Source: Candidatus Freyarchaeum deiterrae (GTDB lineage Archaea > Asgardarchaeota > Jordiarchaeia > Jordiarchaeales > Jordiarchaeaceae). Taken from it: DNA of 64,000 bases. The translations under genes were made by a program, and so were the position numbers. The notes under the pieces are model-generated. The model was not told the origin of the DNA, searched no databases, and saw nothing but the letters and a program-made list of their open reading frames with translations. Position 1 is the first letter of the stretch; every line of letters starts with the position of its first letter. Where the stretch lies: assembly GCA_037305845.1 (NCBI GenBank), contig CP147778.1:64001-128000 (forward strand). Direction: 5' to 3'. Below are positions 1 through 59,152 of this stretch, one piece after another.

Positions 1-696
1 TACTGGTAGTTGCTTCCAAGAATTTTCACGTAGAAATTCTGGTGCAAACCCTTTTTTATCTACTGTAAAAACAGAAAATGGTGATGCAAAGCCTAAAACT
101 TCTCCCTCTTTTTTACAGAGAGAGCATATACCATCTCCTTTTGAGGAAACACCATGCTTATAGTAAAATTTCTCTTTGGCTCCTTCTTTCAAAATGTCTC
201 TAAATATATTAAAATCACCAATAAATTTTTCTCTTCCTTCCTCTCTTATTTTGATGGTAAGTATTAGGTTTCTTCTCTCTTCTTTGCTTAACTCCTCATA
301 TTTTTCAGATACTTTTTTGAATATTTCCTCTTTTTTTGTTTGGATCTCCTCGCTGAGTGATTTAATAATTGGGTTTGTTTTATATTGTTTGGAATATTCT
401 CCAAACCATAGATCCCATCGTTCCTCAACTTTTTCTAGCGATGCAATCTTAGCGGTGGGTGTCACATCATATCTGCCATGACTGAAAGTTCTGTACAAAT
501 ATCTTTCTGATTCTGCTTGCTCATAATCCTCTATATGGACATGATCAAAAACAATACTACTATTCTTTTGTTCAAAAACAACGCATATGACCTTTTTTGT
601 ATTTGTTAATTTGGATTTTTGTACAAGAATCTCCACATCATTTAATTCTCGCTTTTTAATATTGTATTCTCCTAATCTTTTTACGGCATCTAACAT
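1..696 (-). CDS. cas8b: Type I-B Cascade large subunit Cas8b (TM1802/Csh1-like), N-terminal part; runs off the window start
   Basis: Not in the ORF track; translated by hand from ATG 696. Reads MLDAVKRLGEY...YLYRTFSHGRYDVTPTAKI...GICSLC...FSVFTVDKKGF...SWKQLPV, matching TM1802-family motifs (YLYR..D.TPT.K, CxxC, F.T.DK.GF). Lies downstream of cas4. Confidence 0.85.
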   Translation of the reverse strand, partial: MLDAVKRLGEYNIKKRELNDVEILVQKSKLTNTKKVICVVFEQKNSSIVFDHVHIEDYEQAESERYLYRTFSHGRYDVTPTAKIASLEKVEERWDLWFGEYSKQYKTNPIIKSLSEEIQTKKEEIFKKVSEKYEELSKEERRNLILTIKIREEGREKFIGDFNIFRDILKEGAKEKFYYKHGVSSKGDGICSLCKKEGEVLGFASPFSVFTVDKKGFAPEFLRENSWKQLPV

Positions 697-897: not shown

Positions 898-1500
898 CTA
901 GCTTCGTCTACAGATTTTCCAGTATTCGCAATCCGTGCATTTTCCGGAGTTGGGTGTTGGCGGCGGCATTGTTTCTTCTTCCACCATTTTTCTCATCTGA
1001 GTTAGGATTCTGAGTACTGTAAGTTTTGCTTGCGTTGTGATTTCGACTTTTCTTTCTTCATCCGCATCAGTATATCGTATCACTGCGTATCTAACAATAA
1101 CTCCGAAACATACCTCAATTAGCAGTGACTGAGCCACTATCTGAAGATAATGTCCTAGATGTAACTTTTCTGATGCTTCCTTCCCGGTCTTCACATCTAC
1201 TGGAACTATGGTTTCCCCGTCGTACTGGAAGTAGTCCGTTAGAGCGGATAATCCTAACGACTCGGATAGTAAGTAAAAATTATAGTATCGGGTTACATTC
1301 TCTTGTCTTTCGGTCTTTTTTGCTCTGCACTCAACCTCGTGAATTTGTGTGCCTCTATTCATTTTCACCGTAGGGTATACACGTGCTTTGAGTACATATC
1401 TGAAGTAGGGTATTCTTTTGCAATACGCATATTGCCTTATGTCCTCAGCAGTGAAAACCTGTTTCTGTCTTGCTGCTTCCCACGTTTCTATTTGAGTCAT
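898..1500 (-). CDS. cas4: CRISPR-associated protein Cas4
   Basis: N-terminal YxYCxR, RecB-like D...DVK, QxxxQ and C-terminal CxxCxxxxxC Fe-S ligands; follows cas2. Confidence 0.95.
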   Translation of the reverse strand: MTQIETWEAARQKQVFTAEDIRQYAYCKRIPYFRYVLKARVYPTVKMNRGTQIHEVECRAKKTERQENVTRYYNFYLLSESLGLSALTDYFQYDGETIVPVDVKTGKEASEKLHLGHYLQIVAQSLLIEVCFGVIVRYAVIRYTDADEERKVEITTQAKLTVLRILTQMRKMVEEETMPPPTPNSGKCTDCEYWKICRRS

Positions 1501-1778
1501 TATACCAATACTACCTCCTTTTCCTCTATGTTGTAAAGTTCGGAAACTATAATTTGGTTTTCAATACACCTCTCACACACTGGAAATATTCGTATATCTG
1601 CAAGTTCTCCTCCCACCATGTCTTCCAGTTCTAATGAGAGCATTTCGGCTTTGTTTCTGCTCATTTCTCCTATGAAGACACTTTTCTGTAGGCGTCTTAG
1701 TCCGTATCCGAAGAGTCTGGCTGCTATCTTGGTTCGGAGTCTGTCGTCGGGTACGTCGTAGGTTACTATGTTAATCAT
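1500..1778 (-). CDS. cas2: CRISPR-associated endoribonuclease Cas2
   Basis: VTYDV.DD, RLQKSVF and C-terminal CxxC; 92 aa. Confidence 0.97.
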   Translation of the reverse strand: MINIVTYDVPDDRLRTKIAARLFGYGLRRLQKSVFIGEMSRNKAEMLSLELEDMVGGELADIRIFPVCERCIENQIIVSELYNIEEKEVVLV

Positions 1779-2832
1779 TCTGGTTGTCTCCTCCTCCGCC
1801 TGTGGTTCCCCACCATTCGAAGGTGTAGGGGGTGTAGCTCTGAGCTTTTCCTAGGAGGTAGCGTGCGATTTCTCTTGCCTGGTGGAATATCATGTTTTCG
1901 AGGGGTGCTTTTCCTTCGTCTGGTTTCGCCTCGCTTTCCAGTCGGCTGAGTATGGCTTCTATGTACTTTTTCTTAGCATCATCACTGAACAACAGTCTTC
2001 CTTCGGTGTGTTCAAAGTCTTTTGGGGTTAGTGTTCCCTGTGTGAACATGCTTACGGCGGTTCTGTCTACGAGTGGTTGTCTGAATTCTTCTGAGAGGTC
2101 TAGTACTAGGGATGCTTTTCCTGAGCGGTCTGCGTGTAGGAATCCGGCGAATGGTTCCAGTCCGCATGCGGTTACCGCTGCGAGTACTCTGGAGTTGAGT
2201 ATGGTGTATCCTAGGCTGAGTGCTGAGTTGAAGGGGTCTCTGGGTGGTCTTTTCTCTCTTCTCTGGAATCTTATTTCTTCGGGTAGGATTAGTCTTAGGG
2301 CTTGGTAGTATATGCGGGTGGCTTCTGCTTCTAGTCCCATTATCTCGTATCGTTTTTCGGTGATCAGTCCATTATTTATTTCGCTGAGTTTTTCTTGTAC
2401 TCTTTTTATTTCTTGGGTGGCTGCTTCTAGGTGGTCTGCTAGTGTGGGGTCGGTGCGTTTTCTGCTGTTTGCGAAGTAGTTGATTAGTCGGTGCTTGTTG
2501 GTCATTCCGGCGTCCACGAATGTTTTGGCTAGGTGGGTTCCCCTGTGGTCGCCGTAGGCGGTTATCTGTTCTCTGCGTGTGAGTACTGTGCCGTGCATGA
2601 AGAAGCCGTGGAGGAGGGCTATGGGTTTGCCGCCTCCCATGAAGAGTACTGGTACGCCGTTTTCTGCTAGGAGTTTGACGGCTTCGGAGGAGATGCTGGC
2701 GGAGGCGGATACTATGATTTCGGAGAGCTTGACCACGGGTACCTCTTGGAGTTTTTCGCCTCTGCAGGTGATTTTGATGGCTTGCCCCTTTTTTCCTATG
2801 AAGGTTCCGTGGCTGCTTATTTCGATTAGCAT
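1771..2832 (-). CDS. cas1: CRISPR-associated integrase Cas1
   Basis: Catalytic motifs GLEAEATRIYY, NSALSLGY, GFLH and DLSEEFR. Confidence 0.98.
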   Translation of the reverse strand: MLIEISSHGTFIGKKGQAIKITCRGEKLQEVPVVKLSEIIVSASASISSEAVKLLAENGVPVLFMGGGKPIALLHGFFMHGTVLTRREQITAYGDHRGTHLAKTFVDAGMTNKHRLINYFANSRKRTDPTLADHLEAATQEIKRVQEKLSEINNGLITEKRYEIMGLEAEATRIYYQALRLILPEEIRFQRREKRPPRDPFNSALSLGYTILNSRVLAAVTACGLEPFAGFLHADRSGKASLVLDLSEEFRQPLVDRTAVSMFTQGTLTPKDFEHTEGRLLFSDDAKKKYIEAILSRLESEAKPDEGKAPLENMIFHQAREIARYLLGKAQSYTPYTFEWWGTTGGGGDNQND

Positions 2833-7994: not shown

Positions 7995-8011
7995 ACTCGT
8001 CTAGGAAACTT

Positions 8012-8638
8012 TTATTTCTCCAGTTTCAGCCATATTTCCTCATCTGGGTTATAGCTCCAATTTTTGTAAATGTCCTTCTTGAAGACTTTTAACAGTAGAG
8101 CGATTCCTGCACTGTCGAAGAGAACATCATATCCTTCCAGAATTCCAAAAATTAGGGAGGATTCCAAGTTAAGCATGGCAATGAATCCTTTGAGGGTAAT
8201 GGAATTTATCTCAAAGGCTACCCCATACTTTATGGAAATTTGGTATTCGTCGTCGGCAAGACTCAACGGATTTTCAGAAATAACTAGGAGATCTACATCG
8301 CTTTCCTCATGTGTTTTTCCTTTGGCTACGCTTCCGTAAAGCAGGACGCCTAAGACTTCGGGGTGTTTTTCCACGATTTCATAAGCCGCTATCCAAGCGA
8401 TTTCCTTTAAAGAGGCTACCAGAATACTACGTAACTTATCCCGGTCAATCTGATAGCCGTTGCCACTGATCCTTACTACGCCTAGTCGAAGGAGCTGTTT
8501 TAGTTTTATCGATAGCCATCTCTCGCTTAGACCCGTTTCTCTAAATAGTTCTGAGAAGGACTTTTCTCCATTCGATAAAGCGTGTATAATTCTTCCTTCG
8601 GGTGTGAGTGTGAATAGCTTAAGCACTTGCTTTCTCAT
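8012..8638 (-). CDS. wHTH + nucleotidyltransferase (MNT) fusion
   Basis: KSFSELFRETGLSERWLSIKLKQL HTH, then LYGSVAKG...SDVDLL. Confidence 0.85.
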   Translation of the reverse strand: MRKQVLKLFTLTPEGRIIHALSNGEKSFSELFRETGLSERWLSIKLKQLLRLGVVRISGNGYQIDRDKLRSILVASLKEIAWIAAYEIVEKHPEVLGVLLYGSVAKGKTHEESDVDLLVISENPLSLADDEYQISIKYGVAFEINSITLKGFIAMLNLESSLIFGILEGYDVLFDSAGIALLLKVFKKDIYKNWSYNPDEEIWLKLEK

Positions 8639-9120
8639 AGTATATCAATTACGAGATTTTGGATTTTAAATTTACTAAGTATAGAAACTTTATCAAGTAC
8701 ATATAATCTTTCAACCAATAAAGGATAGTCAGAATACTGTCACAAGAGTGGAAGCAGTCCATCTAGGGTTGCTAAGGAAGTTGAAGACGCCACCCACCTC
8801 AGCACCTCTAACATCACTAGGCGGCCTAGAGTCCACATACACCTTTTCCAGCTCTTGGAGGTGATGTACACCAAGAGGAGGGGGAGAACAAACTTGAGGA
8901 CTCTTCTTGTGCTTTAGTTGATGGTGGTAGGGTTTCTGCTTACTGTTTCCTTAGGGGGGAGGTGTTAACTTTCCTCAAGTCGAGGATGGAAGTCCTCCAC
9001 GCATAAAGCATACCCTTCCCATAAACCAAAAAACATACATATTACATTGCGCCGTCGATTGTCGATTTACTGTTTTCTGTGCGTTAGGTTTTTTAGTTTA
9101 GGTGGAGAAGTATAGTTACG

Positions 9121-9285
9121 GTGGCTTTTATGGAGGAGCTTGAGCGTCTGCTCAAGGAGAAAATGAAGATTCTTAAACCCAACGAGTGCGCCGTAATTTA
9201 CGACGACGAGAGAGGACTTCTTATCAGTGTTTGTAATGAGGAAGGGAAGATAAAAATAGTTTCAAAAAAGGTAGATGAACTTTAA
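9121..9285 (+). CDS. Small hypothetical protein (54 aa)
   Basis: Hand-translated: (V)AFMEELERLLKEKMKILKPNECAVIYDDERGLLISVCNEEGKIKIVSKKVDEL. Confidence 0.5.
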   Translation: MAFMEELERLLKEKMKILKPNECAVIYDDERGLLISVCNEEGKIKIVSKKVDEL

Positions 9286-9698
9286 TGATCCTCATTTCCT
9301 CAACCAGACCTAACTACTTTTACTCAGCTAAAAGACACATACTGATAGTAGTCTCGAATCCAACAAGCTTAGAGAGCAGAGTCTTAGGTATTAGAGAACT
9401 CTTAAATTTTGAGGACAGGGAGCTAGCTGAGGCGGCTAGAAGGGTTCTTGAAGCCGCCCTAGAGAAAATAGTTGAACTCGGGGTTCCCTTCATTCTGAGA
9501 GAGATTGGAGTGGAGGTAGATTTTGAGGATCCTTTATGGAGCTACACAGTGTTAACACTGGAAGTGTTTGTTGGGGAGGATCTGTTTGAAACTTTGAGAG
9601 AGAGCGCTGTGAATGCTGCTTACTCTGGTTTAGAGCCTGAAAAAGCTTCGCGGGTGCTGCTGGATGTTCGGCCCTATAGAGTTTCTGAAACCGGCTGA
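9285..9698 (+). CDS. Hypothetical protein, probable partner of the downstream HEPN
   Basis: Overlaps the HEPN gene; acidic alpha/beta composition. Confidence 0.5.
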   Translation: MILISSTRPNYFYSAKRHILIVVSNPTSLESRVLGIRELLNFEDRELAEAARRVLEAALEKIVELGVPFILREIGVEVDFEDPLWSYTVLTLEVFVGEDLFETLRESAVNAAYSGLEPEKASRVLLDVRPYRVSETG

Positions 9699-9975
9699 AA
9701 AACTGTTAACGTATGACGAGGCAAAAATCAGAACCGCTATTAGTAGGTCTTATTATGCTTCCTTCCTCTACGTGAGGGAAGTTGCTGGTTTAGGAGGATT
9801 AAAGATGCCAAGAGTCCGCAGAGAAGCGGTCCGATTTCTCTATGGGAGGAGACCGTTTGCCGAAAACACCCTCCACCTACTAAGGCAGCGTAGAAACGAT
9901 GCAGACTACGATTTAAAATGTGTATTTTCCATATCCGAAGCAAAGCTATCAGTCAACTACGCGAAAAAATTATAG
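9664..9975 (+). CDS. HEPN-domain protein (UPF0332-like)
   Basis: RTAISRSYYASF...RRNDADYD. Confidence 0.8.
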   Translation: MFGPIEFLKPAEKLLTYDEAKIRTAISRSYYASFLYVREVAGLGGLKMPRVRREAVRFLYGRRPFAENTLHLLRQRRNDADYDLKCVFSISEAKLSVNYAKKL

Positions 9976-10138
9976 GCAGCATATAATTCATCGAGTTAAT
10001 TGGAACTTTTACGAGGGGAAAGGATTCGAAAGGAGTGAAATTAGTTTTGGCTCATAATTTATTGGTGGAGAGTCGAGTTTGCTACAAAAATGTGGGCCTT
10101 TTTACTCGTGGTGGTTTCAGCCGGGTTTTCACAAAGAG

Positions 10139-10564
10139 TTACGGGCAGTGGTTTTCCACGAATTCGTTTAGCTTAGCAACTTTCAATTCGTTCACGTTTT
10201 TCCACTCTTTTTCGTACTGTTTCTCTCCTCCAGTAACCAGAACATCCGACTCTGTGGCGATGGCTGTTGAAAGGATTACGGCATCGGCTAGAGAGAAGCG
10301 GTACTTGGTCTTTAGGAGACCGGCTTTGAAGGCTACTCCTAACGTTAAGGGATTCTGTATCAGAGGGACGCTGTTTATGTAGGCAAACTGAATGCGAGCT
10401 TCTTTATCTCCGTAAAGCCGGCTTATTACGTTAACTAGTTCAGCCATCGTAATAACACTTATATGGGTTTCAAAAAGAGTTTTTGCGGCTTCAAGAACCC
10501 TTTCAGCATAGTTGTTCTCTTTATACTTCTCCACCAAAACCCATGTGTCTAGAAAAACTCTCAC
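10139..10564 (-). CDS. PIN-domain (VapC) toxin, apparently intact
   Basis: VFLDTW, TMAEL, SLADAVIL, LVTG. Confidence 0.9.
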   Translation of the reverse strand: MRVFLDTWVLVEKYKENNYAERVLEAAKTLFETHISVITMAELVNVISRLYGDKEARIQFAYINSVPLIQNPLTLGVAFKAGLLKTKYRFSLADAVILSTAIATESDVLVTGGEKQYEKEWKNVNELKVAKLNEFVENHCP

Positions 10565-10827
10565 TGTGACAACTCCTTGGAAAAGCCTTCGGCACGCTTC
10601 TCTTCTTTTCTTCTCTCTTCTTCCAGTAGCCCTTCCAATCTTTCGGCTCTCGGCAGTCTCATAGCTTTAACAACATCATCGGGAAGGGGGATAACAAGGA
10701 TTGTGCCGTCTGGTAAGGCTTCAACTCTTAGGCGCTGCCCTACTTTTAATCCAAGCTTCTCCCTTACTCCCTTGGGGATTATCATCTGCCCCTTAGAGGA
10801 AAGCACTACATCAGTCATTCTTACCAT
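10561..10827 (-). CDS. AbrB/MazE-type antitoxin
   Basis: LSSKGQMIIPKGVREKLGL; start shortened relative to the ORF track. Confidence 0.88.
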   Translation of the reverse strand: MVRMTDVVLSSKGQMIIPKGVREKLGLKVGQRLRVEALPDGTILVIPLPDDVVKAMRLPRAERLEGLLEEERRKEEKRAEGFSKELSQ

Positions 10828-11114
10828 CAACAAAAATGTAAGAAAAAAAGAATATAAGTCTTTCCAACCCACTTTTTCCCAGAATTGTGAACTTTTTGAT
10901 ATTTAGGGGTTCAACTGGGTGGACAGAATCAGTCGATAACGCCTCTTTTTTAGGGCTTCAAAGCGCGAAAAAAACTATACGAACGCTTCTTTTCGATACT
11001 CGTCAAAACTATTCTTCACCACTCCGCACAGCTTACCATAATAACTCGAAAATAACCATAAAAGAAACAAACTGTCCAAAACTGAATGAGGTAGTCGAAG
11101 AAGAAGGTAAAGCG

Positions 11115-11150
11115 TTTTCAGTTTTCATTACGGGGGACTTCTTTTGCAGT
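11115..11150 (-). repeat. Highly degenerate orphan CRISPR repeat, reverse orientation
   Basis: ttttcagttttcattacgggggacttcttttgcag aligns to the reverse-complemented repeat at about 27 of 36 nt with one gap, including a 12-nt exact block. Confidence 0.6.
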
Positions 11151-11229
11151 CACCTTGACCTGTTTTTAACTATTTTTTGGAATAAAGGTGTGCTGGTGGG
11201 TTCCGTGGAGTGTATTTTTCTTCTTTACT

Positions 11230-12792
11230 TTAATAGATGAGCTTTGTTCCCGTTCCTCCGTGTTGTGTGCGTCTAATTCTTATTTCGGTCACTATGGGGT
11301 GCTGGGTAGCTACTCCTGAGGCTATGGCTATACCGTTGGGCAGAAGCGGTATACGTCCAATGTCATCCGTACTTGAATAGTCGAGGTAGGGTTTGAGGTA
11401 TTCCAGGTCGTAGTTTCCTTCTATGCGTAGTATTATTTTTGTTCCACACTGGCTTAAAATGTCTTTGTCCAATCCAGCGATTCTCTGACTGGTGATACAC
11501 AGTCCTAATCCGAACTTTCTTCCCTCGCGGGCTATTTTGCGCATCTGTCTCCTGCTGTAAGTGTTAGTTTCCTGGGGTGCGAAGCGGTGGCTCTCCTCCA
11601 CCACCACTAGTGCGGGCGGAATGGTGCCTCTTTTTCGGGCTTGGAAGACTTTTTGGAGCGCGACGCCTGCAATTATTCTTCTTACCCTCTCGTCCATGTC
11701 TTCGCTCAAATCGATTATGCTTAGAACCCCGGGTTTGACGATGTCGCTAGTGTTGAAGCCTTCTCCAAATATGCCCAGCTCTCTCAGAACCATTATCCTC
11801 CTCACTGTTGAGAGGACTGTGTTTTTCTGAAATTTCCACTCTTCAGCCGCATCCTCCACTGCCTCAGTTAGAGTTTCGGGGTCGTAGGATTGCTTATCCA
11901 CACTCAGCCTCTTCATTGCTAGGAAGAGGAGGTCGGACTGGACATCACTCATTCCGCAGATTTCGCTTATGGCGTAGGCGTCCAAATCACTCATATTTAT
12001 GGTGAGTTCGCTTCCACCGTTTTTGCCCAAGCCTTTGGGAAAATAGCTGACCGCCCTGTAGCCCTTGGGGGTAATCCCAAACTCTGGGGAGCGTTCAATC
12101 TCCTCCGGATTCTTGTTCGGCTGCCTGAATGTGTTGTACTCTCCGTGGGGGTCGATAACCAGTACTGGAAGATTCTTCTCCAAGAGTTCCTCTATGAGCA
12201 CTCCCACCGCGTAGGATTTTCCGCTTCCAGTGGCTCCCAAAACGGCTACATGGTGTCTCACCAGCTTATCGGGATCCAACAATACCTTTATAGCGTTGTT
12301 TCCCCTCATCAAACCGATGTAGAGTCCGTCGCTGGGCAATCCCAAAAAGCGGTTGAGCAGTTTGGTATCCGCTCGGTAAACGATGTTGCCAGGCTCTGGA
12401 GCGTCCTCCGGGGGAAGTATTCTCTCGTTCTTAACTAGTCCCACCACTTTGACTCGTGCCACTCTCCATCTGCTGGACCTCGTGGGGAATCTTGAGTCTA
12501 CTGTTATTCCGCGGGTAATGTGATACTTAACAAATTCGGGATCCGTGTAGTACTCGTTGTAAGCTTGAATGGTGGAAACTCGGCCTACGAGTACACTGAG
12601 CCCCAGGGGCACCTCAACGTATTCCCCTACCTTTACTTCGGATTCCTCCGCTATTTGAAAATTAAAATTCAGGTGATTAGGAGTGTTTCCCTCACAGATG
12701 ATGACTCCCAAATCCGACTTGTTTTCCCCCTTAGGGGTATGGTTTTCATTTTCACTACTCTTTCTTTGCATCCTCTTTTTTCCTCCCTGCAC
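11230..12792 (-). CDS. HerA-family ATPase/helicase (HAS barrel + FtsK/HerA motor)
   Basis: GATGSGKS, IDPHGEY, EESHRFAP, REGRKFG, SQR. Confidence 0.93.
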   Translation of the reverse strand: MQGGKKRMQRKSSENENHTPKGENKSDLGVIICEGNTPNHLNFNFQIAEESEVKVGEYVEVPLGLSVLVGRVSTIQAYNEYYTDPEFVKYHITRGITVDSRFPTRSSRWRVARVKVVGLVKNERILPPEDAPEPGNIVYRADTKLLNRFLGLPSDGLYIGLMRGNNAIKVLLDPDKLVRHHVAVLGATGSGKSYAVGVLIEELLEKNLPVLVIDPHGEYNTFRQPNKNPEEIERSPEFGITPKGYRAVSYFPKGLGKNGGSELTINMSDLDAYAISEICGMSDVQSDLLFLAMKRLSVDKQSYDPETLTEAVEDAAEEWKFQKNTVLSTVRRIMVLRELGIFGEGFNTSDIVKPGVLSIIDLSEDMDERVRRIIAGVALQKVFQARKRGTIPPALVVVEESHRFAPQETNTYSRRQMRKIAREGRKFGLGLCITSQRIAGLDKDILSQCGTKIILRIEGNYDLEYLKPYLDYSSTDDIGRIPLLPNGIAIASGVATQHPIVTEIRIRRTQHGGTGTKLIY

Positions 12793-14230
12793 GCTTTAGG
12801 CGTCTTAGGTCTCGTGTTCTTTGAAGCTCGTCCCACATGCCCATCAGTCCTGCTTTAAGCGAACCCTTAACCGCTCTCATTAGCTGCTCCAGATTAACCA
12901 CAGCCACATTTTTCGCCGAGGAAACCACGCTAGGACCCCCCTCGAATCGGGTTCTCAGTGGAATGGATGAGAGGCTGAAGGCTAGGTCTGCAATCTGTTT
13001 CTGATCCTCAAGCGGGTTCTTCGAAACGAACTCGTACTTGGTGACCAAAGGTTTCTTCATAACGTAGAACTCGTAATTGTCCTCAGTAGGGGGCTTATCC
13101 TTCTCGTGTCCCCTATCTATCAGGCAGGTGGTGTCTCCGTCCTCCAAAACCATGGAGAGGAAATTCAGGTCGTTGGTTGAACCTATCTCCTGCCCCAAGA
13201 CTCTACGGACTATTTTGAAGAAAAAGTTATCCATAGATATGGGCACCACACCCACCGGGATTACTCCACTATTTTTCGCGGTTTCAAGAAATTTGTAGTA
13301 TAGCTCGTGGCACCGGTCTCTCAAACGCACCAACTCTTTTGAGTAAACCATAAATCCGTGCGGGGCTAGTGAACCCAGTTTGAAGTAGACCCGGAACTTG
13401 TCACTGTGCTCCTCAATCATCTCCATTGCCAACCTATAGTGCTGAATCTCCCTCAGGTAACGGGCGGCGATACTCCTACCAGCTTCCAAAAGCTCCGGAA
13501 AATCAGTCGACATCTCAAAGAACGGCTCCCCCTCCACGAACGGCTCAAACCCCCCATAAGAGTGAAGATCTGGAATGTAGTGGGACAGAGACTTGCTCTG
13601 ATCCAAGATGTTTTTGTCAAAAAAACCCAGATACGCGCCACTACTCAGAGCAACCACAGAGAGCAGGGAAAAATCGAGAAGCGCCCAGTGCTCCAATCTA
13701 TGAGCGGAAGCCGAGCCGCAAACAAAAACATTGTCCAAAACTAGGTCCCGCGCATACTTTGACAAAACTAGAGTTTCACCAAGCAAACGATCCGCATACT
13801 CCGTGTCCTCCACCCTAACCCCAGACAGCCTCTCCCTAACCTCGCCCCCCAGTATCTTGGGAAAATCGAGTTTTTCCAGAAGCCGGCGAACCTTATCCGA
13901 AACCGAAATCAGCTCCGCCTGAGCAGCAATATCCTGACCCACAAAGTCCTCGACTAGCACGGCGGACTTGGGTTCAAAGAGCAGCTCGCTCGTCACATCG
14001 TCGATTCTGCTGGTATTCACCCGATACCTTCCCGCTCCCTCATAGGCTAGAACATCTAGGTTTGAGAGGTCGTCCAGATAATCTTTAACCGAGCGCTCGG
14101 TTAGATCCACTTTATCAGCCAAGGAGGCTACATTCACCACTCCCTGCTCCGTGAATACTTCCAAGCAGGCGTTTAGAATGAGCGTCAGTCTCGCACGGTA
14201 GGTTGACCCGGTCCGCCCCATCTTAATCAC
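12755..14230 (-). CDS. wHTH + NurA-like domain protein, catalytic residues apparently lost
   Basis: N-terminal HTH (VASLADKVDLTERSVKDYL). NurA-like motif order with VCGS for vDGS, KLGSL for lDGsl and GGP..VSSAKNVA for GYP..L..AH..A. Overlaps herA. Confidence 0.6.
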   Translation of the reverse strand: MIKMGRTGSTYRARLTLILNACLEVFTEQGVVNVASLADKVDLTERSVKDYLDDLSNLDVLAYEGAGRYRVNTSRIDDVTSELLFEPKSAVLVEDFVGQDIAAQAELISVSDKVRRLLEKLDFPKILGGEVRERLSGVRVEDTEYADRLLGETLVLSKYARDLVLDNVFVCGSASAHRLEHWALLDFSLLSVVALSSGAYLGFFDKNILDQSKSLSHYIPDLHSYGGFEPFVEGEPFFEMSTDFPELLEAGRSIAARYLREIQHYRLAMEMIEEHSDKFRVYFKLGSLAPHGFMVYSKELVRLRDRCHELYYKFLETAKNSGVIPVGVVPISMDNFFFKIVRRVLGQEIGSTNDLNFLSMVLEDGDTTCLIDRGHEKDKPPTEDNYEFYVMKKPLVTKYEFVSKNPLEDQKQIADLAFSLSSIPLRTRFEGGPSVVSSAKNVAVVNLEQLMRAVKGSLKAGLMGMWDELQRTRDLRRLKRAGRKKEDAKKE

Positions 14231-14639
14231 TTCACTCTATATCCAAATCCGAAGTATATTTCAAATCTGTATAATTATATCCACAAAAACAATATAAACA
14301 CACCGACAACACAAAACAAACCTTCAAAAAACAAAAAAAACAGCAAACAAAAAACCCTAAACCACTATAAAAACAGCAGCAACTAAAAAATTAAATGAAA
14401 AACTGAAAAAATAAAACCTGAACACCATATCACTTCCACCAGAAATTAAGGGGAACCTAAAACAGTGAAAAAGCCGCAAAACACCCCGAAAAACTAAAAA
14501 ACCACGCAAAACATCCAAAAAATCCGCTAAGAAAAAAAATAGAATAGAAAAACGAAAACCAAAACTATCAAAATCCAGAAAGCAGAAACCAGATTTCCCA
14601 AAGTCTAAACAACATAAAGGAGATATACTACATACTCAG

Positions 14640-14784
14640 AAAAGCCGAAGAAGGCATAACAAACCCTTTCGATTACTCGAACACATTTATAAAGAGCATG
14701 CATTTTTCCTAGTGTTCGAGTGAAACCTCCCAAAAGAAGCTTTTATAAGCCTATAAACCCAAAAATAAGTAATATAATATAACC
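14640..14784 (+). promoter_or_regulatory. CRISPR leader
   Basis: AT-rich and abuts repeat 1; TTTTATAA at 14741; 10-bp inverted repeat at 14675-14684/14712-14721. Confidence 0.8.
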
Positions 14785-17700
14785 CTTGCAAAAGAAGTTC
14801 CTCAGTAACGAGGATTGAAAGTACCACGTATTCGGAGCATAGTTAGCATTATAACCGCTTGCAAAAGAAGTTCCTCAGTAACGAGGATTGAAAGAAAAAT
14901 TGGATGAAGTGCTAGTCGAAATTGAATTAATACTTGCAAAAGAAGTTCCTCAGTAACGAGGATTGAAAGTAATATCCTTCTACAGCACCATAAGGTGTGA
15001 TATTTCCTTGCAAAAGAAGTTCCTCAGTAACGAGGATTGAAAGATGACTGAGTAGTAGAGCAACTGCATCTCGTTGTTACTTGCAAAAGAAGTTCCTCAG
15101 TAACGAGGATTGAAAGGAACCTCTCCGCTCCAAACCCAAAAAGTAGCTGAAACCACTTGCAAAAGAAGTTCCTCAGTAACGAGGATTGAAAGAAGGATAA
15201 AACTGCAATAAAAGAGGAAATGATTAACTTGCAAAAGAAGTTCCTCAGTAACGAGGATTGAAAGAACAAAAGAAAAGATACATATTCGTTAAAGGCAGCA
15301 ACTTGCAAAAGAAGTTCCTCAGTAACGAGGATTGAAAGTTCCCCGACGATGCGACTGAAAGCCGAACATTAACACATCTTGCAAAAGAAGTTCCTCAGTA
15401 ACGAGGATTGAAAGCAAGAAACAGACCTTGTAGATTCATGGATACTTATCCCTTGCAAAAGAAGTTCCTCAGTAACGAGGATTGAAAGTATTTTAAGGTT
15501 CGAACGCAGGGACCGGAGCGTGTTCCTCTTGCAAAAGAAGTTCCTCAGTAACGAGGATTGAAAGGTCAAGGTAAGTTCTAGGATTCTTACTGGTGAAAAG
15601 CTTGCAAAAGAAGTTCCTCAGTAACGAGGATTGAAAGACAGAAAAAAAAGAGATTATTTTATGAACTCCTAAAACTTGCAAAAGAAGTTCCTCAGTAACG
15701 AGGATTGAAAGGACCTAAAAGGTAGGTCTAAAATCTTGATCAAAAACGTCTTGCAAAAGAAGTTCCTCAGTAACGAGGATTGAAAGTATTATTCTACATA
15801 TATATGACCTAACGTAATACAGCTTGCAAAAGAAGTTCCTCAGTAACGAGGATTGAAAGTTTACGATATTCAAACTAAACGATTTAGGAAATCCAACTTG
15901 CAAAAGAAGTTCCTCAGTAACGAGGATTGAAAGTATCTTTTCTAAATCTTCCCTCTTAAAAAAGGGCTTAAACCTTGCAAAAGAAGTTCCTCAGTAACGA
16001 GGATTGAAAGGATCCCAGCCCGCGCTGAAAAGCACTAAATAGAATATTACTTGCAAAAGAAGTTCCTCAGTAACGAGGATTGAAAGTAATAGACTTTGAT
16101 TAGGAATTAGATTATTTAAGCTAGGACTTGCAAAAGAAGTTCCTCAGTAACGAGGATTGAAAGCCTTTCAGGAGATTAGACCCAACCGAAAGCATTGAGC
16201 GGGGCTTGCAAAAGAAGTTCCTCAGTAACGAGGATTGAAAGGAATAGAGCGGTTAGGACTCCGCCTGCAATTCCCAGCTTGCAAAAGAAGTTCCTCAGTA
16301 ACGAGGATTGAAAGTAGCCCCGATACCGCAGGTGAGACCGCAAGAGTCGAACTTGCAAAAGAAGTTCCTCAGTAACGAGGATTGAAAGTCAACGTTTTCT
16401 TACAATTCAAACCTTCTCTATCACAACTTGCAAAAGAAGTTCCTCAGTAACGAGGATTGAAAGTTCCGAGTAACACCACCAGTTATCGCAAAATGATTCT
16501 TGTCTTGCAAAAGAAGTTCCTCAGTAACGAGGATTGAAAGAACTTTAACTCGATTAGAGATCCAAGGGACCCAGTTCCTTGCAAAAGAAGTTCCTCAGTA
16601 ACGAGGATTGAAAGTGGTGGCGACAAGTCTCACCGCAGAAACTGTTCGGAAACTTGCAAAAGAAGTTCCTCAGTAACGAGGATTGAAAGTATCTAATGCG
16701 TCAAATCCACCTAAAACAAATTCTAACTTGCAAAAGAAGTTCCTCAGTAACGAGGATTGAAAGTCTCAGCCGAATGCGTGGGATTTAATAACGAAGAAGA
16801 AACTTGCAAAAGAAGTTCCTCAGTAACGAGGATTGAAAGATTTAACAGAAACGATGAAGCAAAAGCGTACATTAACTTGCAAAAGAAGTTCCTCAGTAAC
16901 GAGGATTGAAAGTCATCGGTTAGTGAGATTACTAGTTATTTAGATTTTGCTTGCAAAAGAAGTTCCTCAGTAACGAGGATTGAAAGGAGAAGTCTTTATG
17001 CTTCCTGATCCAAACTACTTTTTACTTGCAAAAGAAGTTCCTCAGTAACGAGGATTGAAAGTCTTCTCCAGCTTCAGCGCAAACGCGGTTTTATGGAGCA
17101 CTTGCAAAAGAAGTTCCTCAGTAACGAGGATTGAAAGACGAATAATAGGAGATGAGAAACGTGAGCAGAATAGCTTGCAAAAGAAGTTCCTCAGTAACGA
17201 GGATTGAAAGTCATCTCGATAAGCTCCTTTAATGAATTGATACTTCACTTGCAAAAGAAGTTCCTCAGTAACGAGGATTGAAAGTTAGAGGATGTAGCAA
17301 TCAAGAAGACCCTCAGTAAACTTGCAAAAGAAGTTCCTCAGTAACGAGGATTGAAAGCAAAAAATGCGATAATAATGAAGCTGTTTCTAAAACTCTTGCA
17401 AAAGAAGTTCCTCAGTAACGAGGATTGAAAGAATTATTAGAATTAGGAGCAAAAACAACCTGTCCCGACTTGCAAAAGAAGTTCCTCAGTAACGAGGATT
17501 GAAAGGTAATGAGACAATAAACTTGGAGATTTACGATAAAGCTTGCAAAAGAAGTTCCTCAGTAACGAGGATTGAAAGTCACATCCTCCTCACCCTCATC
17601 CGCCCCACAGTACCCGCCTTGCAAAAGAAGTTCCTCAGTAACGAGGATTGAAAGTAAAAACAGAGGAACTTTTGAAGCCTCTGCTTGTTGAAACTTGCAA

Positions 17701-20630
17701 AAGAAGTTCCTCAGTAACGAGGATTGAAAGTTTATGTTGGGAATATTCACTCGTAAACCTAAAAGAAACTTGCAAAAGAAGTTCCTCAGTAACGAGGATT
17801 GAAAGACATGTCACCGGAACAGTACGCCGGAAAAGAGAGCGCTTGCAAAAGAAGTTCCTCAGTAACGAGGATTGAAAGTCCTTCTCCTTTTCTGGGTCCT
17901 TGTACATTTTCTTGCTTGCAAAAGAAGTTCCTCAGTAACGAGGATTGAAAGGGTATGATTGTGGAGCGGGTTATGGATGAGCGGGGACTTGCAAAAGAAG
18001 TTCCTCAGTAACGAGGATTGAAAGCTGTATAGAAGTAGCTTGTATATTGCGCCACATACCTGAACTTGCAAAAGAAGTTCCTCAGTAACGAGGATTGAAA
18101 GCAAAATAGGCGCCCTAAAATCACAACTCAGTTTTTAACTTGCAAAAGAAGTTCCTCAGTAACGAGGATTGAAAGTTAATTCGCTTAGTTGACAGATATA
18201 GACGTGTTTATCTTGCAAAAGAAGTTCCTCAGTAACGAGGATTGAAAGGGTATTCCAACCGCATATACTATCTCCGTTAAGTTCACTTGCAAAAGAAGTT
18301 CCTCAGTAACGAGGATTGAAAGTAACCAAGAATGTTCCGGTGAGTGATATTCAATCATTCTTGCAAAAGAAGTTCCTCAGTAACGAGGATTGAAAGTACA
18401 CGTACCAAGTGGAACCCAGAAACAGGAGCAGAAGCTTGCAAAAGAAGTTCCTCAGTAACGAGGATTGAAAGGGATTAGCTCCGCTAAGAGTATCTGAGTA
18501 TTACACACCACTTGCAAAAGAAGTTCCTCAGTAACGAGGATTGAAAGTGTTCCATTAAAATCACCAAGAATAAAAGAACAAATAGCTTGCAAAAGAAGTT
18601 CCTCAGTAACGAGGATTGAAAGTAATTTCTTTCATATTTTTCACCATTTTCTTTTTTTAACTTGCAAAAGAAGTTCCTCAGTAACGAGGATTGAAAGAGA
18701 AACGAGTTGAACAGATCGCAACTAGAAGCCCTCACTTGCAAAAGAAGTTCCTCAGTAACGAGGATTGAAAGTTCTTTTTGAAAAATATCCCACGAATCTT
18801 TATCTGATGCTTGCAAAAGAAGTTCCTCAGTAACGAGGATTGAAAGTGTTGTTTCTCTAAGTATTCTATACGGTTTTTTAATCTTGCAAAAGAAGTTCCT
18901 CAGTAACGAGGATTGAAAGTGTTATGCTGATTTCCTTTATATGGCAACAAAAATAGCTTGCAAAAGAAGTTCCTCAGTAACGAGGATTGAAAGAATAGGT
19001 CATGGGTACACCTTAAATAAAGGTGTACTCTTCTTGCAAAAGAAGTTCCTCAGTAACGAGGATTGAAAGACTACTAGACCACGAAATAATCTACAAGGAC
19101 AAACAACTTGCAAAAGAAGTTCCTCAGTAACGAGGATTGAAAGAAAGAAATTGATGTGAAGGAAAGAATCAAGGAATGCACTTGCAAAAGAAGTTCCTCA
19201 GTAACGAGGATTGAAAGGTTTGGGGGCTGATTAATACCGCAACATTTCTAGTGGGCTTGCAAAAGAAGTTCCTCAGTAACGAGGATTGAAAGGATTCTTG
19301 GACATTCCAAGCGGGATGGAACATGACAAGCTCTTGCAAAAGAAGTTCCTCAGTAACGAGGATTGAAAGATGCCTATAATTACGAAGACTAAAATAAGAC
19401 TTAAGATACTTGCAAAAGAAGTTCCTCAGTAACGAGGATTGAAAGATTTACTTCTGGTTCTTTGTAGTAGGTTACAGAGTTGTACTTGCAAAAGCAGTTC
19501 CTCAGTAACGAGGATTGAAAGTAGTAAATTGGTTTTTTCTCAATCTCATTATATTTCAACTTGCAAAAGAAGTTCCTCAGTAACGAGGATTGAAAGACTC
19601 CGTGCCCTATTCCCCACGGTGGATCCGTTGCACAACTTGCAAAAGAAGTTCCTCAGTAACGAGGATTGAAAGACGGTGAACGGTCACAGTCCCTCGACCG
19701 CTGTTCAGGTCTTGCAAAAGAAGTTCCTCAGTAACGAGGATTGAAAGCATAAGACTACCCATAAGATTCTCGCTAACACTAGACACTTGCAAAAGAAGTT
19801 CCTCAGTAACGAGGATTGAAAGTAATGGACCAATCTGTTCTTTGAGAGAATTTAGTAACTTGCAAAAGAAGTTCCTCAGTAACGAGGATTGAAAGCTTTT
19901 CTTTCACGAAACGTACTTGATTCTACGTAATAGCTTGCAAAAGAAGTTCCTCAGTAACGAGGATTGAAAGTTGCGCTTTTAATGCAGGATAAAAGGGATT
20001 TGACTACTTGCAAAAGAAGTTCCTCAGTAACGAGGATTGAAAGGATCCTCCGTGACTATGTGTTTGAATTTTTCTTTCTGCCTTGCAAAAGAAGTTCCTC
20101 AGTAACGAGGATTGAAAGGTTAAATGCTCTTGACGATTCATCGTGGGGTGCTTGGGCTTGCAAAAGAAGTTCCTCAGTAACGAGGATTGAAAGTCAAGTC
20201 AATCTTGGAGCTTCAAGGATTTGAATTACTCTTGCAAAAGAAGTTCCTCAGTAACGAGGATTGAAAGTCAGGGTTATCGAACTGAAGGTCCTTGCAGACC
20301 TCCTTGCAAAAGAAGTTCCTCAGTAACGAGGATTGAAAGTCCAACTGCGGCAGCTTGTTCGTGGCCATAATTATTTCTTGCAAAAGAAGTTCCTCAGTAA
20401 CGAGGATTGAAAGATTTTCTTCGTTATGCAGTTGAAGAACATGGAGTGAGTCTTGCAAAAGAAGTTCCTCAGTAACGAGGATTGAAAGTGTACCTATTAC
20501 GCGTGGGAGGGATGCTTTTTGGGACTTGCAAAAGAAGTTCCTCAGTAACGAGGATTGAAAGTATATTTTCATCCTCCTATTCGGTTCTTAAATATTCGCA
20601 CTTGCAAAAGAAGTTCCTCAGAAACGAGGA
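14785..20630 (+). CRISPR. CRISPR array; repeat CTTGCAAAAGAAGTTCCTCAGTAACGAGGATTGAAAG (37 bp); about 78 full repeats plus 1 truncated; spacers about 35-41 bp
   Basis: Period about 74.5 bp; TCCTC/GAGGA hairpin and ATTGAAAG 3' end; one variant at 19485; last repeat (20601) has the GAAAC variant and stops at nt 30. Counted by hand. Confidence 0.99.
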
Positions 20631-20647
20631 AGTTGATAATATCGAAG

Positions 20648-52215: not shown

Positions 52216-55200
52216 TCAATTAACCTTGGTTACCTGTACACTGCCCGCAGTCTCCACGTTGCCCGCGTTATCGGTGGACCTAAAGTATACGGTTGTGGTC
52301 CCCTTGGCTGAGATGATGAAAGGACCGGTGTAGGTGATCCAGTTGCTGGTGCCGTTTATGCTGTACTGCGTCAAAGCTACACCTGAAATGTTGTCCGTAG
52401 CTGTGAGTGTGACGGTTACGTTCGAGGTGTACCCGCCGCTACCCGTGGTGCCGCTCAGACTATATTTGGTCACTGGAGGGGTTCTGTCGATCTTCACCGT
52501 TACGTTGTTCATGCTCTCCACGTTGCCCGCGCTGTCGGTTGAGTTGTAGTACAGGGTTGTGGTTCCCTGAGCCGTGATGGTGAACGTACCGGTGTAGTTG
52601 GTCCAGCTGCCGGTGCTGTTTAATTTGTACTGAGTCTTAGTTGTGCCTGAGTATTTACTAGATACTGTGAGTGTGACTGTTACGTTGGAGGTATACCAGC
52701 CGTTACTCCCTAGAGTGCCGCTTAAGTTGTAAGTGGTCACAGGGGCATAGTCGATACTTATTTTTACGTTACTCGTAGTCCCGGTGTTGTTAGCGAGGTC
52801 GATTGACCGATAGTACAGGGTTGTGTTTCCCTTGGCTGTGATGGTGAACGGAGTACCGGTGTAGTTGGTCCAGCTGCCGGTGCTGTTTATGCTGTACTGC
52901 GTCAAAGCTACACCTGAAATGTTGTCGGTTGCTGTGAGTGCAACGGTTGCATTCCAGGCGTACCCGCCGTTACTCCTCTTAGTGCCGCTTACACTGCTGA
53001 TTGTGGTCACTGGAGGGGTCTTGTCAATCTTCACCGTTACGGAATTTAGGTAATAGTTGCCCGCGTTATCGAATGAGCCGTAGTATACGGTTGTGACTCC
53101 CTGGGTTGAGATGGTGAAAGAAGTAGTGTAGGAGACCGGGTTGCTGGTGCCGTTTATGCCGTAATATGTTCCAGAAATGCCTGAAACGCTGTCGGCCGAT
53201 GCTAGAGTAATGTTTACATTGGAGGTGTACCAGCCGTTAAGCCCCTTAGTGCCGCTCAGACTGGCTGTGGTCACTGGAGGGGTCTTGTCAATCTGTATAA
53301 TGCCAAGGTAAATGTGATAAGGCTCTATATTGAGAGCATTGTCGTACGACCCATAGTACAGGGTGTGCTTGCCCTCGGCTGAGATGGTGAAAGTACCATT
53401 ACAGTAGATCCAAGTGCCGTTGTTGTCTAACATATAGCAATATATCAAAACGCCTGAAGTGCTGTCGGTCGCGTTGAGTGTAAAGGTCACATCAGAGATG
53501 TACCACCCGTTGTTGAAAGGCCCTAGTGTGCCGCTTACACTGCTGATTGTGGTCACTGAAGGAGTCTTGTCAATCTTTACCGTTACATTATTTATGTTCT
53601 CTACCACGTTGCCCGCGTTGTCGGTTGAGTTGTAGGATAGGGTGTGGACTCCTTCTGCCGAGATTGTGAAAGGAGCAGTTTTGCATTTTAAACCCTGTAA
53701 ATTTATTCCCTACCTTTGTGTGGACTCCTTCTGCCGAGATTGTGAAAGGAGCAGTGTAGGTGATCCAGTTGGCGCCGTCTAGGCTATACTTTATCGTCTT
53801 AACGCCTGACGCGTTGTTATTCGGTGTGAGTGTGACTGTTACGTTAGATTTGTACCAACCGTAAAGCCCCGCAGTGCCGTTTAAGCTAATAAGGGTCATT
53901 GACATTGCGACAGCTATTGTTTTTGTATAATCCATTTGGCCCGCGTAGTCGGTTGAGTTAAAGTATACTGTTGTGGTTCCCCAGACTGTGATGTTGAAAG
54001 GACCATTGTAGGTTTTCCAGTTGGTCCCGTCAAAGCTGTACTGTGTCAGAGCTACGCCTGAACTGTTGTCAGTCGCGTTAAGTGTGACAATCACATTCGA
54101 GATGTACACTCCGTTAACCTGTATGCCGTTTAAGCTGATTGTGGTCACTGGAGGAGTCTTGTCAATCTTTATTGTTGCATTACTTATATTGTATTCACCA
54201 GCGTTGTCGATTGACGCATAGGATAGGTTGTGGACTCCTTCGGTTGAGATGGCGAACGGACCATTGTAGAGGAACCAGCCATTGCTGTCTAACATATACC
54301 CAGTCATCCAAACGCCTGAAATGTTGTCGGTCGCGTTGAGCGTGACATTCACATCCGAGGTGTACCAGCCGTTACTCCCCCGCGTGCCGTTTAAGCTGAT
54401 TGTGGTCACTGGAGGAGTCTTGTCAATCTTCAGCGTTACATTGTTCGTTTTCTCCGCGTTGCCCTTGTTATCGGTCGAGTTGTAGTAAAGGGTGTTGATT
54501 CCCTCAGCTGAGATGGTGAACGGAGCGGTGTAGTTGGTCCAATTGTTGCTGTTCAATTTGTATCCTGTTGTCCAAACTTTTGTAGCGTTGTCTGTGGCGT
54601 TGAGTGTGACGGTTACATTTGAGGTATACCAGCCGTTAAGACCCTGGGTGCCGTTTAGTTTTACGGAGGTCACCAGGGGAGCCCTCTGAATAGTTATTGT
54701 TCTGGTGCTTGTGTTCTCCACGTTGCCCGCGTAGTCGGTTGAGTTGTAGGCTATGGTGTGGACTCCGTTGGTTGAGATGTTGAACGGACCGGTGTAGTTA
54801 ACCCAGCTGCTGCTATCCAATTTGTACCCCGTTATTATGGGGAGAGCCGTACAGTTGGTGGCTGAGGCGTTTTTGGTCGTGTTGAGTATGAAGTTTAAAT
54901 TCAGGAGGTTGGATGCTGCTGCAGCGGTGTCGGTCGCTTTAAGTGTGACGATTACGTTCGAGGTGTACGTGCCGTTACTCGCCTGGACGCCGTTCAAACC
55001 GATACTGGTCACTGGAGGAGCCTTGTCAACAAGTATTGGTTCAATATGTACATCCTCAATGTTTCCTGCAAAGTTGATTGACCTGTAGTACAGAATTGTG
55101 ACCCCTTCGTTTGAGATGGTTGTTGAGGTAGAGAGTGGCTTGGCGCTGGTGTTGCCCTGGTTAGTTGTTCGGGTGAGGAACGGAAAATAGAAGGTCTGGT

Positions 55201-58200
55201 TGGTTGAGACGGTGAGTGAACCATTGTAATTGAACCAGTTGATACAGTCAAAGCTATACTCAACCATAGCAATGCCTGAAGTACCAGTGGTTCCTGTGAG
55301 ATTAACGTTCACATCCGAGGTATACCAGTGGTTTTGCCCCAGTGTGCCGCTTAAATTTATGTTGGTCGCTGTAGGGGTCTTGTCAACCATTACTGTTGCA
55401 CTACTTGCGTTCTCAACGTTGCCCACGTTATCGGTTGACTTGTAGTATATGGTTGTGGTTCCCTCATTTGAGATGGTGAACGGACCAGTGAAATTGGTCC
55501 AGTTGGTGGTGCCGTTTATGCTGTATTGAGTTATAGCTACGCCTGATTCGCTGTCGGTCGGGTGGAGTGTGACGTCAACATCGGAGGTGTACCAGCCGTT
55601 AAGCCCCGGTGTAGCGTTCAAACTAGCTGTGGTTACTGGTGGAGTCTTGTCAATATTTACAGTTATGTTACCAGAATTCACGTTGCTCGCGTCATCAATT
55701 GACCTGTAGTATATGGTTGTGGTCCCCTCGGTTGAGATGGTTATTGATATGTTAGATGGTGGAATATATATCCAAAGGGGGATTTTCAACCACCCAATGT
55801 CCCAGAAGCCTATAAAATACAACTGACCGTTGTAGGTGTACCAGTTGGTGCCGTCGAAGCTGTACTGTATAGTAGTAACGCCTGAAACGGAGTCATTTGT
55901 TGTGAGTGTGAAATTCACATCAGAATTGTACCAACCGCTAAGCGTCTGGGTGCCAGTGCTACTCAAACCTGTTGTAACTACTGGCGGGGTCTCGTCAATC
56001 TTTACCTCATATATACCTGCTGGGTACTCTACGTTGCCAGCGTTATCAGTTGAGTTGAAATATATGTCTTTGATCCCCTCGGCTGAGATGATGAAAGGTC
56101 CGGTGTAATTGATCCATTCGCTGTCGTTTAAGCTGTACTGGGTCATAGCTACACCTGATGTACTATCGGTTGCTGTGAGTGTGACAGTTATGTTTGAGGT
56201 GTACCAGTTGTCTCTTCCCAGCGTGCCGCTCAAGCTAATTAAGGTCACCGGTGGAGTCTTGTCAATCATTATTGTTACGTTTTTTGCACTCTCCACATTG
56301 CCAGCCAAGTCGATTGATTGGTAATAGAGGGTTGTGATTCCCTCGGTTGTGATAATGAGTGAACCGGTATAGGTGTTCCAGTTGACGCCGTCAAGGCTGT
56401 ACTCCGTCTTAATGGAAGCGCCTGGAGCGTTGTCGGTCGCGTTGAGTATGACGTTCACATCGGAGGTGTACCAGTTGTTAAGCCCCGGTGTGCCGCTTAG
56501 ATTAGCTGTGGTTATTGGAGTAGACTTGTCAATCATTATTGGTACATTACTTGTAGTCTCCACATTACCCCCTTTGTCGACTGAATAGTAGTACAGGGTT
56601 GTGGTTCCCTCATTTGAGATGGTGAACGGACCGGTGTATAAATACCAAGTGGTATTGTCGAAACTGTACTCTGTCGCAGCAATCTGTGGGCCGTTGCTGG
56701 TCACCGATAGAGTGACCCTCACGTTTGATATGTACCAGCCGTTAAGCCCCGGTGTGCCACTAAAACTAGCTGTGGTCCATGGAGGAACCTTGAGCACTTG
56801 TATTGTTTTTGTGTCCTCCACATTGCCCGCATTATCAATTGACCTGTAGTATAAGTTTGTGGTTCCCATTTTTGTAATGGCGAACGGACCAGTGTAATTG
56901 AACCAGTTTACGCCGTCGAAGCTGTTCTCTGTACTGCTCACGCCTGAAATGCCGTCTCTTGCTGTTAGTGTGACGTTCACATCGGTGGTGAACCCTCCAC
57001 TTATCCCCTGTGTGCTGCTTAAAAGTGTACCGTTTAGATTGATATTGGTTACTGGTGGAGTCTTGTCGATCAGCACGGATATGTTGTTTGTGTTCTCCAC
57101 ATTGCCCACCAAGTCGATTGAGCGGTAATAGAGGGTTGTGTTCCCCTCGCTTGTGATGATGAATGGATTGGTGTAGGTGTTCCAGTTGGTGGTGCTATTG
57201 ATGCCGTACTGCGTAAGAGCTACGCCTGAAGCATCGTCTGTTGCGGTGAGTGTGACTGCTACTTTTGAGGTGTTCCAGCCGTTAAGTCCCTGGATGCCGC
57301 TTAAACTAGCTGTGGTTGCTGGAGGATTCTGGTCGACATATATCGTCATGGTGTTGGTCGGTTCCGTGTTGCCGGCGACGTCGACTGACCTGTAGTACAG
57401 AGTTGTGGTGGTTGATATCGTGGGTAGATTGCTGGAGTTGTAGATAATCCAATTGGTGCCATCAGTGCTGTACTCCGTCCTGTCTATGGCTAAGCCTAAA
57501 ATGCTGGTTGCTGTGAATGTTAAGATAACATTGGAGGTGTACCATCCGTTAATTGGTCCAGTGCCACTTAAGAGAATACTGGTCGACGGAGCCTTATTGA
57601 TCGTTATTGTAATACTCTTTGTTTGTTCCATGTTCCCTGCTTCATCGGTTGAGTTGTAGTATATGGTTGTGGTTCCTGCATTTGAGATGGTGAACGGACC
57701 GGTGTATAAATTCCAGGTTTTATTATCGAAACTGTACTCCGTCGCCCAAATTTTTGGGCCGCTGCTGGTTGCCGATAGAGTTACCCTCACGTTTGAGATG
57801 TACGAGTCACCGTTTCCTTTAATGCCGCTTAAACTAGCACTGGTCGAGGGGGGTGGAACATCGTCGAACCATATGAAAGAGCCTGCTCCGATGTAGTACC
57901 AGAAGCCAATAAACCAAGCAATCATAATATTGACATTATTATCAGCAAGTATATAGCACACTCCTTGGTCGGGACATATCTGCTCAGTTGCGCCATCATA
58001 CGCTACAACAAAGTTTTGCATATATGAAAAGCCAGCTACCAGTTCCCAAGCTGGGCAAATCAGGTGAAATGTCGTGAGTTCCATGAAACCAAAAGCGGGA
58101 TCATTATCCAAATTGAAGAGATAAGTCTGGTATATAACGTTAAAATCGTTTTCCAACTGGGTTGAATAATCTAGTAATGCTGCTTCAATTATTGCGTCTA

Positions 58201-59152
58201 TTAAAGCTCCAATAGGGTTAACCTTCAGAGCAATCATAGCTACCTCTGCTATTGCACTTAGTGAAACGTCCACATATGGATTAATTTCGAGTCCTTCATG
58301 GTCATAATAGAGGACATTAAGTGCTGAGTTTACGAATAAATACGCTTGATTATCCGCAGTAGGATACTGAACTATTGCTCCGCATTCAAAGCCGTATAGG
58401 ATACATATGCAACACCACCACCAAAAGTATACAAAATAATACAGCGGCAGAATCATTTCCATTACCCATGGGTCTGAGATCAGTGTTCCATTGAGATCGT
58501 ACACCGACGTTTTGAGGACATACATTGTTGTTCCGTTTACGTCCATTGCGTAGTCTCCTGTAACCTGTATGCAGTTGGTGCCGTTTATCGTTATAGTTTG
58601 GTTCCACTCTTTTACCAGTGTACCCTCGGTGGTGACGAGGCTCATGTAATTGGAAGTGGCTACTTCTTTTGTGAACTGGATCATGTTGGCTTGTATCTCT
58701 TGGCTGAGTAGTTGGTCGTACTGTTTGAAGAGTTTCTGGTCTTTGGGGTTTTCGGACAGGAACTGGGTGAACATTTTGGTGACGGTCGCGTTATCACGCG
58801 AGCTGGCTGCAGTCATCATCCTTTCTGTGCTGCTCAGCGTCCAAGTTTTGAAGTCCTCGTTTATCCGGGCTTGAACACCCTCCTTTGTGGTGTTCTGGTT
58901 GATGTTGTTTAGCAGGTCTGGGTTCATTGTATTCTGGGGGTTGAGTGAGTTGGGGGTTGTGGTGCTCATGGAGTTGGAGGTTGGTGCTTGCTTCTGGTTA
59001 AGGAGCGCCGCTAGATTGAGATTCGGGTATCCTGAGGAGGGTATTTTGTTGGTCTGCACTGCTATGATGCCTGTTCCTATGGTTAGCGTTAACACTGCTA
59101 GAAACACTACGAGCACTGTTCTAATGCTTTTCTTCACTCTTATTTCTCCCAA
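52216..59152 (-). pseudogene. Giant secreted/surface protein with about 20 Ig-like (DKTPP, OmpL47/CHB_HEX_C-like) repeats, frameshifted by a 76-bp insertion
   Basis: N-terminal signal/TM. The two ORFs join into one 2286-aa frame when 76 bp are removed (…AEGVHT|LSYNSTDNAGNVVEN…). Confidence 0.88.
53642..53755. repeat. 38-bp perfect direct repeat flanking a 38-bp unrelated insert
   Basis: gtgtggactccttctgccgagattgtgaaaggagcagt at 53642-53679 and 53718-53755. Confidence 0.95.

Follow-up and report, generated by a model that had tools for sequence, protein, structure and literature searches.

We analysed a window of 64,000 nucleotides from the Asgard archaeon Candidatus Freyarchaeum deiterrae (contig CP147778.1, positions 64,001 to 128,000), the assembly of which is a single contig of 3,576,204 bp. 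On the minus strand, a long gene for a surface protein is divided into a truncated N-terminal ORF of 1854 aa (53588..59152; NF047446 match) and an orphaned C-terminal part (52216..53607), a 463-aa open frame with five OmpL47-type domains. At the point of division a perfect 38-bp direct repeat (53642-53679 and 53718-53755) flanks 38 bp at 53680-53717, as the first-pass annotation of this DNA had described, and its claim that removal of 76 bp restores the gene also holds: excision yields a single ORF of 2286 aa with zero internal stops and no further lesion. The restored product has about 20 OmpL47-type beta-barrel domains, an N-terminal anchor and 90 N-glycosylation sequons, and the OmpL47-type domain is also present in three further long ORFs of the genome. 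No orthologue of the gene was found in five congeners with the queries used, and the intact allele was accordingly reconstructed from the open frame and the register of the repeat domains. The perfect duplication in an otherwise lesion-free frame indicates that the event is recent.

The 76-bp addition shifts the frame and costs the protein its last 474 residues (about five distal domains), leaving 1812 of 2286 residues (79%) and about 15 of 20 domains. The 1854-aa ORF consists of these 1812 native residues and a 42-aa frameshifted tail, and keeps the N-terminal hydrophobic anchor; the 463-aa frame begins within the old gene and therefore lacks the original anchor. The surface-protein gene is truncated, not knocked out as had been proposed, and we found no evidence for the further suggestions that the truncation was selected or that the protein serves as a virus receptor.

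A repeat-length duplication around a spacer-length insert

The unit can be read in two registers, which the first-pass annotation had considered equally good. In the 37+39 register, a 37-bp copy of the target site (53642..53678, plus strand), a stretch of surface-protein coding sequence in the position of a surrogate repeat, is followed by a 39-bp spacer-like piece (53679..53717, plus strand) and a second, perfect 37-bp copy (53718..53754, plus strand). The 38+38 register may formally hold as well, one T at 53679 being common to the target copy and the donor described below, but the fit is not equal, since the donor match extends over 39 bp including this T and so favours 37+39. Both predicted attack positions are G/C in the 37+39 register. 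Microhomology at the junctions amounts to at most 1 nt (1 nt shared at one junction, 0 at the other), with no added bases. CRISPR arrays and periodic protein repeats aside, exact and relaxed scans of the 3.58-Mb genome (the latter allowing 2 mismatches in 26 bp), of the kind that the annotation had proposed, found no other repeat-insert-repeat unit.

The resident adaptation machinery and arrays

The opposite end of the window carries a set of adaptation genes on the minus strand, comprising cas4 (898..1500), the product of which we take from knowledge of the family to be a PAM-trimming nuclease, cas2 (1500..1778) and cas1 (1771..2832), the only Cas1 in the genome. Beside them lies the 5' part of a putative cas8b (1..696, minus strand), the first gene of the neighbouring type I-B module, which continues beyond the window with cas7b, cas5b and cas3. 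Relatives of this Cas1 with 85-88% identity are found in Jordarchaeia/Freyarchaeota genomes. Searches of the genome for a reverse transcriptase, Ku or a second Cas1 (casposase) found none. A CRISPR array of 79 repeats of 37 bp, with its leader on the left, occupies 14785..20637 (plus strand), and its end is 33,005 bp from the insert, in agreement with the earlier estimate of about 33 kb. Three large arrays in the genome have near-uniform 37-bp repeats and hold a total of 224 spacers, 34-42 nt in length. Spacers of 38 nt (75/224) and 39 nt (38/224) place both registers of the insert within the range, and the unit length of 76 is shared with 38 of the 224 array units. None of the 224 spacers matches the organism's own chromosome.

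Several other features of these loci deserve mention. Directly upstream of cas1 is a 299-aa ORF (2839-3738, minus strand) that has no NCBIfam or PADLOC match and is possibly an accessory adaptation protein, and the array leader is adjoined by a HerA-family ATPase and an unassigned 491-aa ORF (11230-14230, minus strand), proteins of a kind that may provide the adaptation machinery with DNA ends. Around the arrays (7480-25840 of the window and G000:C1:37397-44568 in genome coordinates), degenerate CRISPR repeats occur singly or in pairs between small genes, several of which are of toxin-antitoxin type. A one-spacer mini-array with a different repeat of about 30 bp stands beside the second type III locus (L004:2147-2243; G000:C1:2683146), in contrast with the single genomic Cas1 and the 37-bp repeats of all large arrays.

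The donor is self DNA beside a probable replication origin

The insert had been described as foreign filler, to be searched for in the genome and in viral contigs. The genome search located an exact donor, which refutes a foreign source: the inserted piece is identical in 39/39 bases to the minus strand of G000:C1:1640727-1640765, 1.52 Mb away, while viral contigs gave no match. The piece comes from an intergenic region of the host, is single-copy and has no terminal repeats, and the 5' flank of the donor is CCT in the 39-nt register and CTT in the 38+38 register.

The donor lies within a 3.2-kb stretch of 31% GC that contains short ORFs only and is located upstream of cdc6 and the gene for the small DNA polymerase subunit (DP1). 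Of the four strongest matches to an ORB consensus in the genome, two, together with an inverted partial box, are situated about 0.7-1.7 kb from the donor, and the skew inflects at 1.60-1.68 Mb. These features suggest that the donor region is probably oriC, although the skew sign is the reverse of the bacterial one and another pair of cdc6 genes is found at 1.68 Mb; the gene-strand bias is compatible with an origin or a terminus alike. This further pair, two divergent cdc6 homologues at G000:C1:1681371-1683911, is 45 kb from the ORB-bearing cdc6, and the cumulative GC skew peaks near it with the bacterial origin sign reversed.

A matching PAM

Comparison of this genome's spacers with phages and with genomes of the genus revealed no true protospacers, and we therefore read the PAM from overlapping spacers, where a spacer that starts inside another exposes the bases upstream of its own start. 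Each spacer overlap used exceeds a score that shuffled spacers attain at a rate of about 0.07 per run. The flanks obtained in this way are CCT, CCT and CTT from the organism's own arrays and TCC from a congener array; a congener spacer that links an IS end with the subterminal region of that element adds CCG. Three of the five visible flanks are CCN [P(>=3 of 5 CCN) ~0.0008 at background, where CCT makes up ~1% and CCN 3-5% of positions], in a sample of five flanks of which two come from a congener and one is CTT, the flank that the 38+38 register would give. The PAM of the system is thus probably 5'-CCN, a first estimate for this Freyarchaeia system. The first-pass annotation had proposed checking the insert's source for the PAM of the array protospacers, and the CCT flank of the donor agrees with this estimate; on these sequence data, the inserted piece probably starts directly after the system's PAM.

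We preferred the overlapping-spacer data to an inference of the PAM by repeat likeness from the catalogue of Vink et al., which we rejected: the repeat is absent there, and its nearest 37-nt look-alikes are associated with TTA/TTN, which fit neither end of the donor. Anchored partial matches of spacers in the genome proved to be noise. Two of the overlaps pair spacers across arrays of this genome (28041-32866 and 2674869-2680714), in one case on opposite strands, and one spacer occurs twice in the same array with 1 mismatch. In the congener G004, a spacer (L037:2662-2700; L103-L110) fuses the terminal 9-10 bases of a multi-copy element with a position some 100 bp within that element, and so records a nested insertion or a small circle of a host IS-like element.

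The target site does not resemble the CRISPR repeat

The first-pass annotation had noted an internal inverted repeat in the target and a likeness to the 3' half of the CRISPR repeat. We confirm the inverted repeat (CTCCTT/AAGGAG); its length is, however, unremarkable, as 7% of random 37-mers contain one equally long. The likeness did not hold: aligned in register, target and repeat are identical at 9-12 of 37 positions (24-32%), which is the chance level, the repeat-like motif is displaced from the register by about 6 nt, and the local score is equalled by 23% of random 37-mers. Neither identity nor alignment scores place the target above random DNA in its likeness to the repeat or the leader. 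Both sequences do share TCCT/AGGA arms, found in 0.9% of windows, a feature chosen post hoc and differing in spacing. The target also folds unlike the repeat and is without its 5-bp/6-nt hairpin and its ATTGAAAG end. To the left of the unit is coding sequence and no leader, and a mini-array with leader, Cas6-processable hairpin and 8-nt handle is not what we find here. Because the surrogate repeat has neither the hairpin nor the ATTGAAAG end, the unit is probably silent and yields no guide RNA.

Support from sequencing reads

The genome was curated by hand from metagenomic reads, and the authors state that their curated genomes have uninterrupted read support and an overall topology validated by long reads (PMC11291895). 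An independent view is offered by Logan contigs, which stop 30 nt inside any repeat of at least 31 bp, so that contigs have to break at 1640756 and 1640736 if the 39-mer exists twice. In five runs (SRR28200042, SRR29366189, SRR29366191, SRR29366193 and SRR29366204) contigs terminate at 1640756 or begin at 1640736, and in two of these runs both sides break. The exact 30-nt overlaps in five runs show that a second copy of this 39-mer is present in the reads, presumably the one in the surface-protein gene. Three runs cross the donor unbroken, though contigs of two of them are interrupted at fixed repeats of 33 and 42 bp. Most simply, these three runs lack the inserted allele or contain it as a minority, which suggests that it is polymorphic; low coverage or graph cleaning could also be the cause. 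The surface-protein gene is internally repetitive and fragments short-read assemblies, and for this reason no junction-spanning contig was obtained, the Logan contigs beside the gene halting at other 33-42-bp repeats. The target and junction gave no match in JGI metagenomes, and no short protein fragments across the insertion site are on record.

Origin of the structure

We propose that the structure arose by natural off-target spacer integration by Cas1-Cas2-Cas4, a reading to which we assign a probability of roughly 0.9 and which supports the ectopic Cas1-Cas2 integration put forward in the first-pass annotation. A self donor, its CCT flank, a duplication equal in length to the CRISPR repeat and indirect support from reads all point in this direction. 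In the proposed sequence of steps, a host fragment from beside the probable replication origin would have been captured as a prespacer and trimmed directly after its 5'-CCT PAM, in the way that Cas4-Cas1-Cas2 handles ordinary spacers. It would then have been joined into the surface-protein gene, instead of at the leader-repeat junction, through a pair of staggered attacks separated by 37 bp, the first presumably by chance and the second measured by the ruler, and gap filling would have duplicated the 37 bp between them. As the unit probably yields no guide RNA, a spacer against the organism's own origin region with the correct PAM would be tolerated; a silent unit may thus let a self-matching spacer persist, whereas 0/224 array spacers match the chromosome. 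From the geometry, the donor, the PAM match, the enzyme inventory and the second copy in the reads, we infer for this single event that Cas1-Cas2 was the agent.

The most serious alternative, which we nevertheless judge quite unlikely, is Cas-independent repair, with a short piece of free DNA, such as a by-product of the replication origin, ligated or copied into a staggered break, the duplication produced by fill-in and the CRISPR-like sizes coincidental. Repair of this kind would suit an insert of self DNA from a replication-active region and a target unlike the repeat, but it needs chance to supply the 37-bp duplication, the 39-nt insert and the CCT flank, the flank alone having a frequency of 1-5%. 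The absence of junction microhomology, the failure to find Ku or a reverse transcriptase and the occurrence of a single such scar in the genome, which argues against any frequent process, also weigh against it.

Far less probable still is an artefact of assembly, curation or library preparation. A repetitive gene that breaks short-read assemblies, a genome curated by hand from metagenomic reads and three runs without a break at the donor are the circumstances under which one would be suspected; the assemblies of five runs, made without the curators, nonetheless break precisely where the 39-mer starts or stops, uninterrupted read support and a validation of overall topology by long reads are stated (PMC11291895), and an artefact is not expected to respect a PAM. 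Just as improbable is that an excised mobile element or a casposon, one making a long target duplication, left the structure behind as its remnant. The integrases of mobile elements do typically duplicate their targets, but the duplications of casposons and IS elements are much shorter, the insert has no terminal repeats and consists of single-copy intergenic DNA of the host, and the genome has no second Cas1 that could act as a casposase.

Relation to known systems and significance

Off-target integration by Cas1-Cas2-Cas4, as we propose it here, has precedents in E. coli and in vitro, against which the present wild case is unusually well supported. As described in 10.1101/148544 and PMC7054753, non-canonical integration by the E. 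coli type I-E system (Nivala, Shipman and Church 2018) gave rise to neo-CRISPR loci in work with overproduced Cas1-Cas2 and supplied oligonucleotides; wild cases in two other species are presented as circumstantial, and natural off-target integration at native expression levels is called unclear (10.1101/148544). Spacer-sized DNA outside an array in vivo is common to both cases, and a target duplication of repeat length is expected from the chemistry of integration. Unlike in E. coli, we observe a wild Asgard archaeon, a Cas4-containing module, a self donor with a PAM, a coding gene as target and several field samples. In vitro, the off-target integrations of P. furiosus Cas1-Cas2 fall at G/C pairs separated by the length of one repeat (PMC6698737), with the same pairing of G/C attack sites and the same repeat-length spacing. 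Those experiments used plasmids, the ruler was 30 bp and the preferred sites were repeat-like (best 43%), whereas the 24-32% of the Freyarchaeum target is chance level. In P. furiosus arrays, oriC is a hotspot of self-spacers with a 5'-CCN PAM, for which copy number may be the explanation (PMC5737086). The inserted piece is likewise self-derived, with a probable 5'-CCN PAM, and comes from near a probable oriC, but it entered a gene, whereas the P. furiosus self-spacers entered arrays. Casposons (Cas1-solo transposons) share integration by a Cas1-family enzyme and target duplication; here there is no element, no terminal inverted repeats and no second Cas1, and the duplication has the length of the CRISPR repeat. 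In the open literature, we found no wild off-target integration for which donor and PAM are both identified.

It is doubtful, though conceivable, that Cas1-Cas2-Cas4 acts repeatedly as a natural mutagen in the lineage, that the truncated allele is segregating and rising under selection, for example by a virus, and that silent scars preserve origin-derived self prespacers which autoimmunity purges from arrays. The locus itself brings together nearly the whole signature, namely a repeat-length duplication, a spacer-length insert, an exact donor, a PAM that fits and traces of the insert in several field samples, and it offers a defined substrate for testing off-target integration. The PAM test separates Cas-made scars from look-alikes of other origin. 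If the proposed reading is correct, the adaptation machinery that provides an archaeon with its spacers would also be able to break the genes of its host.
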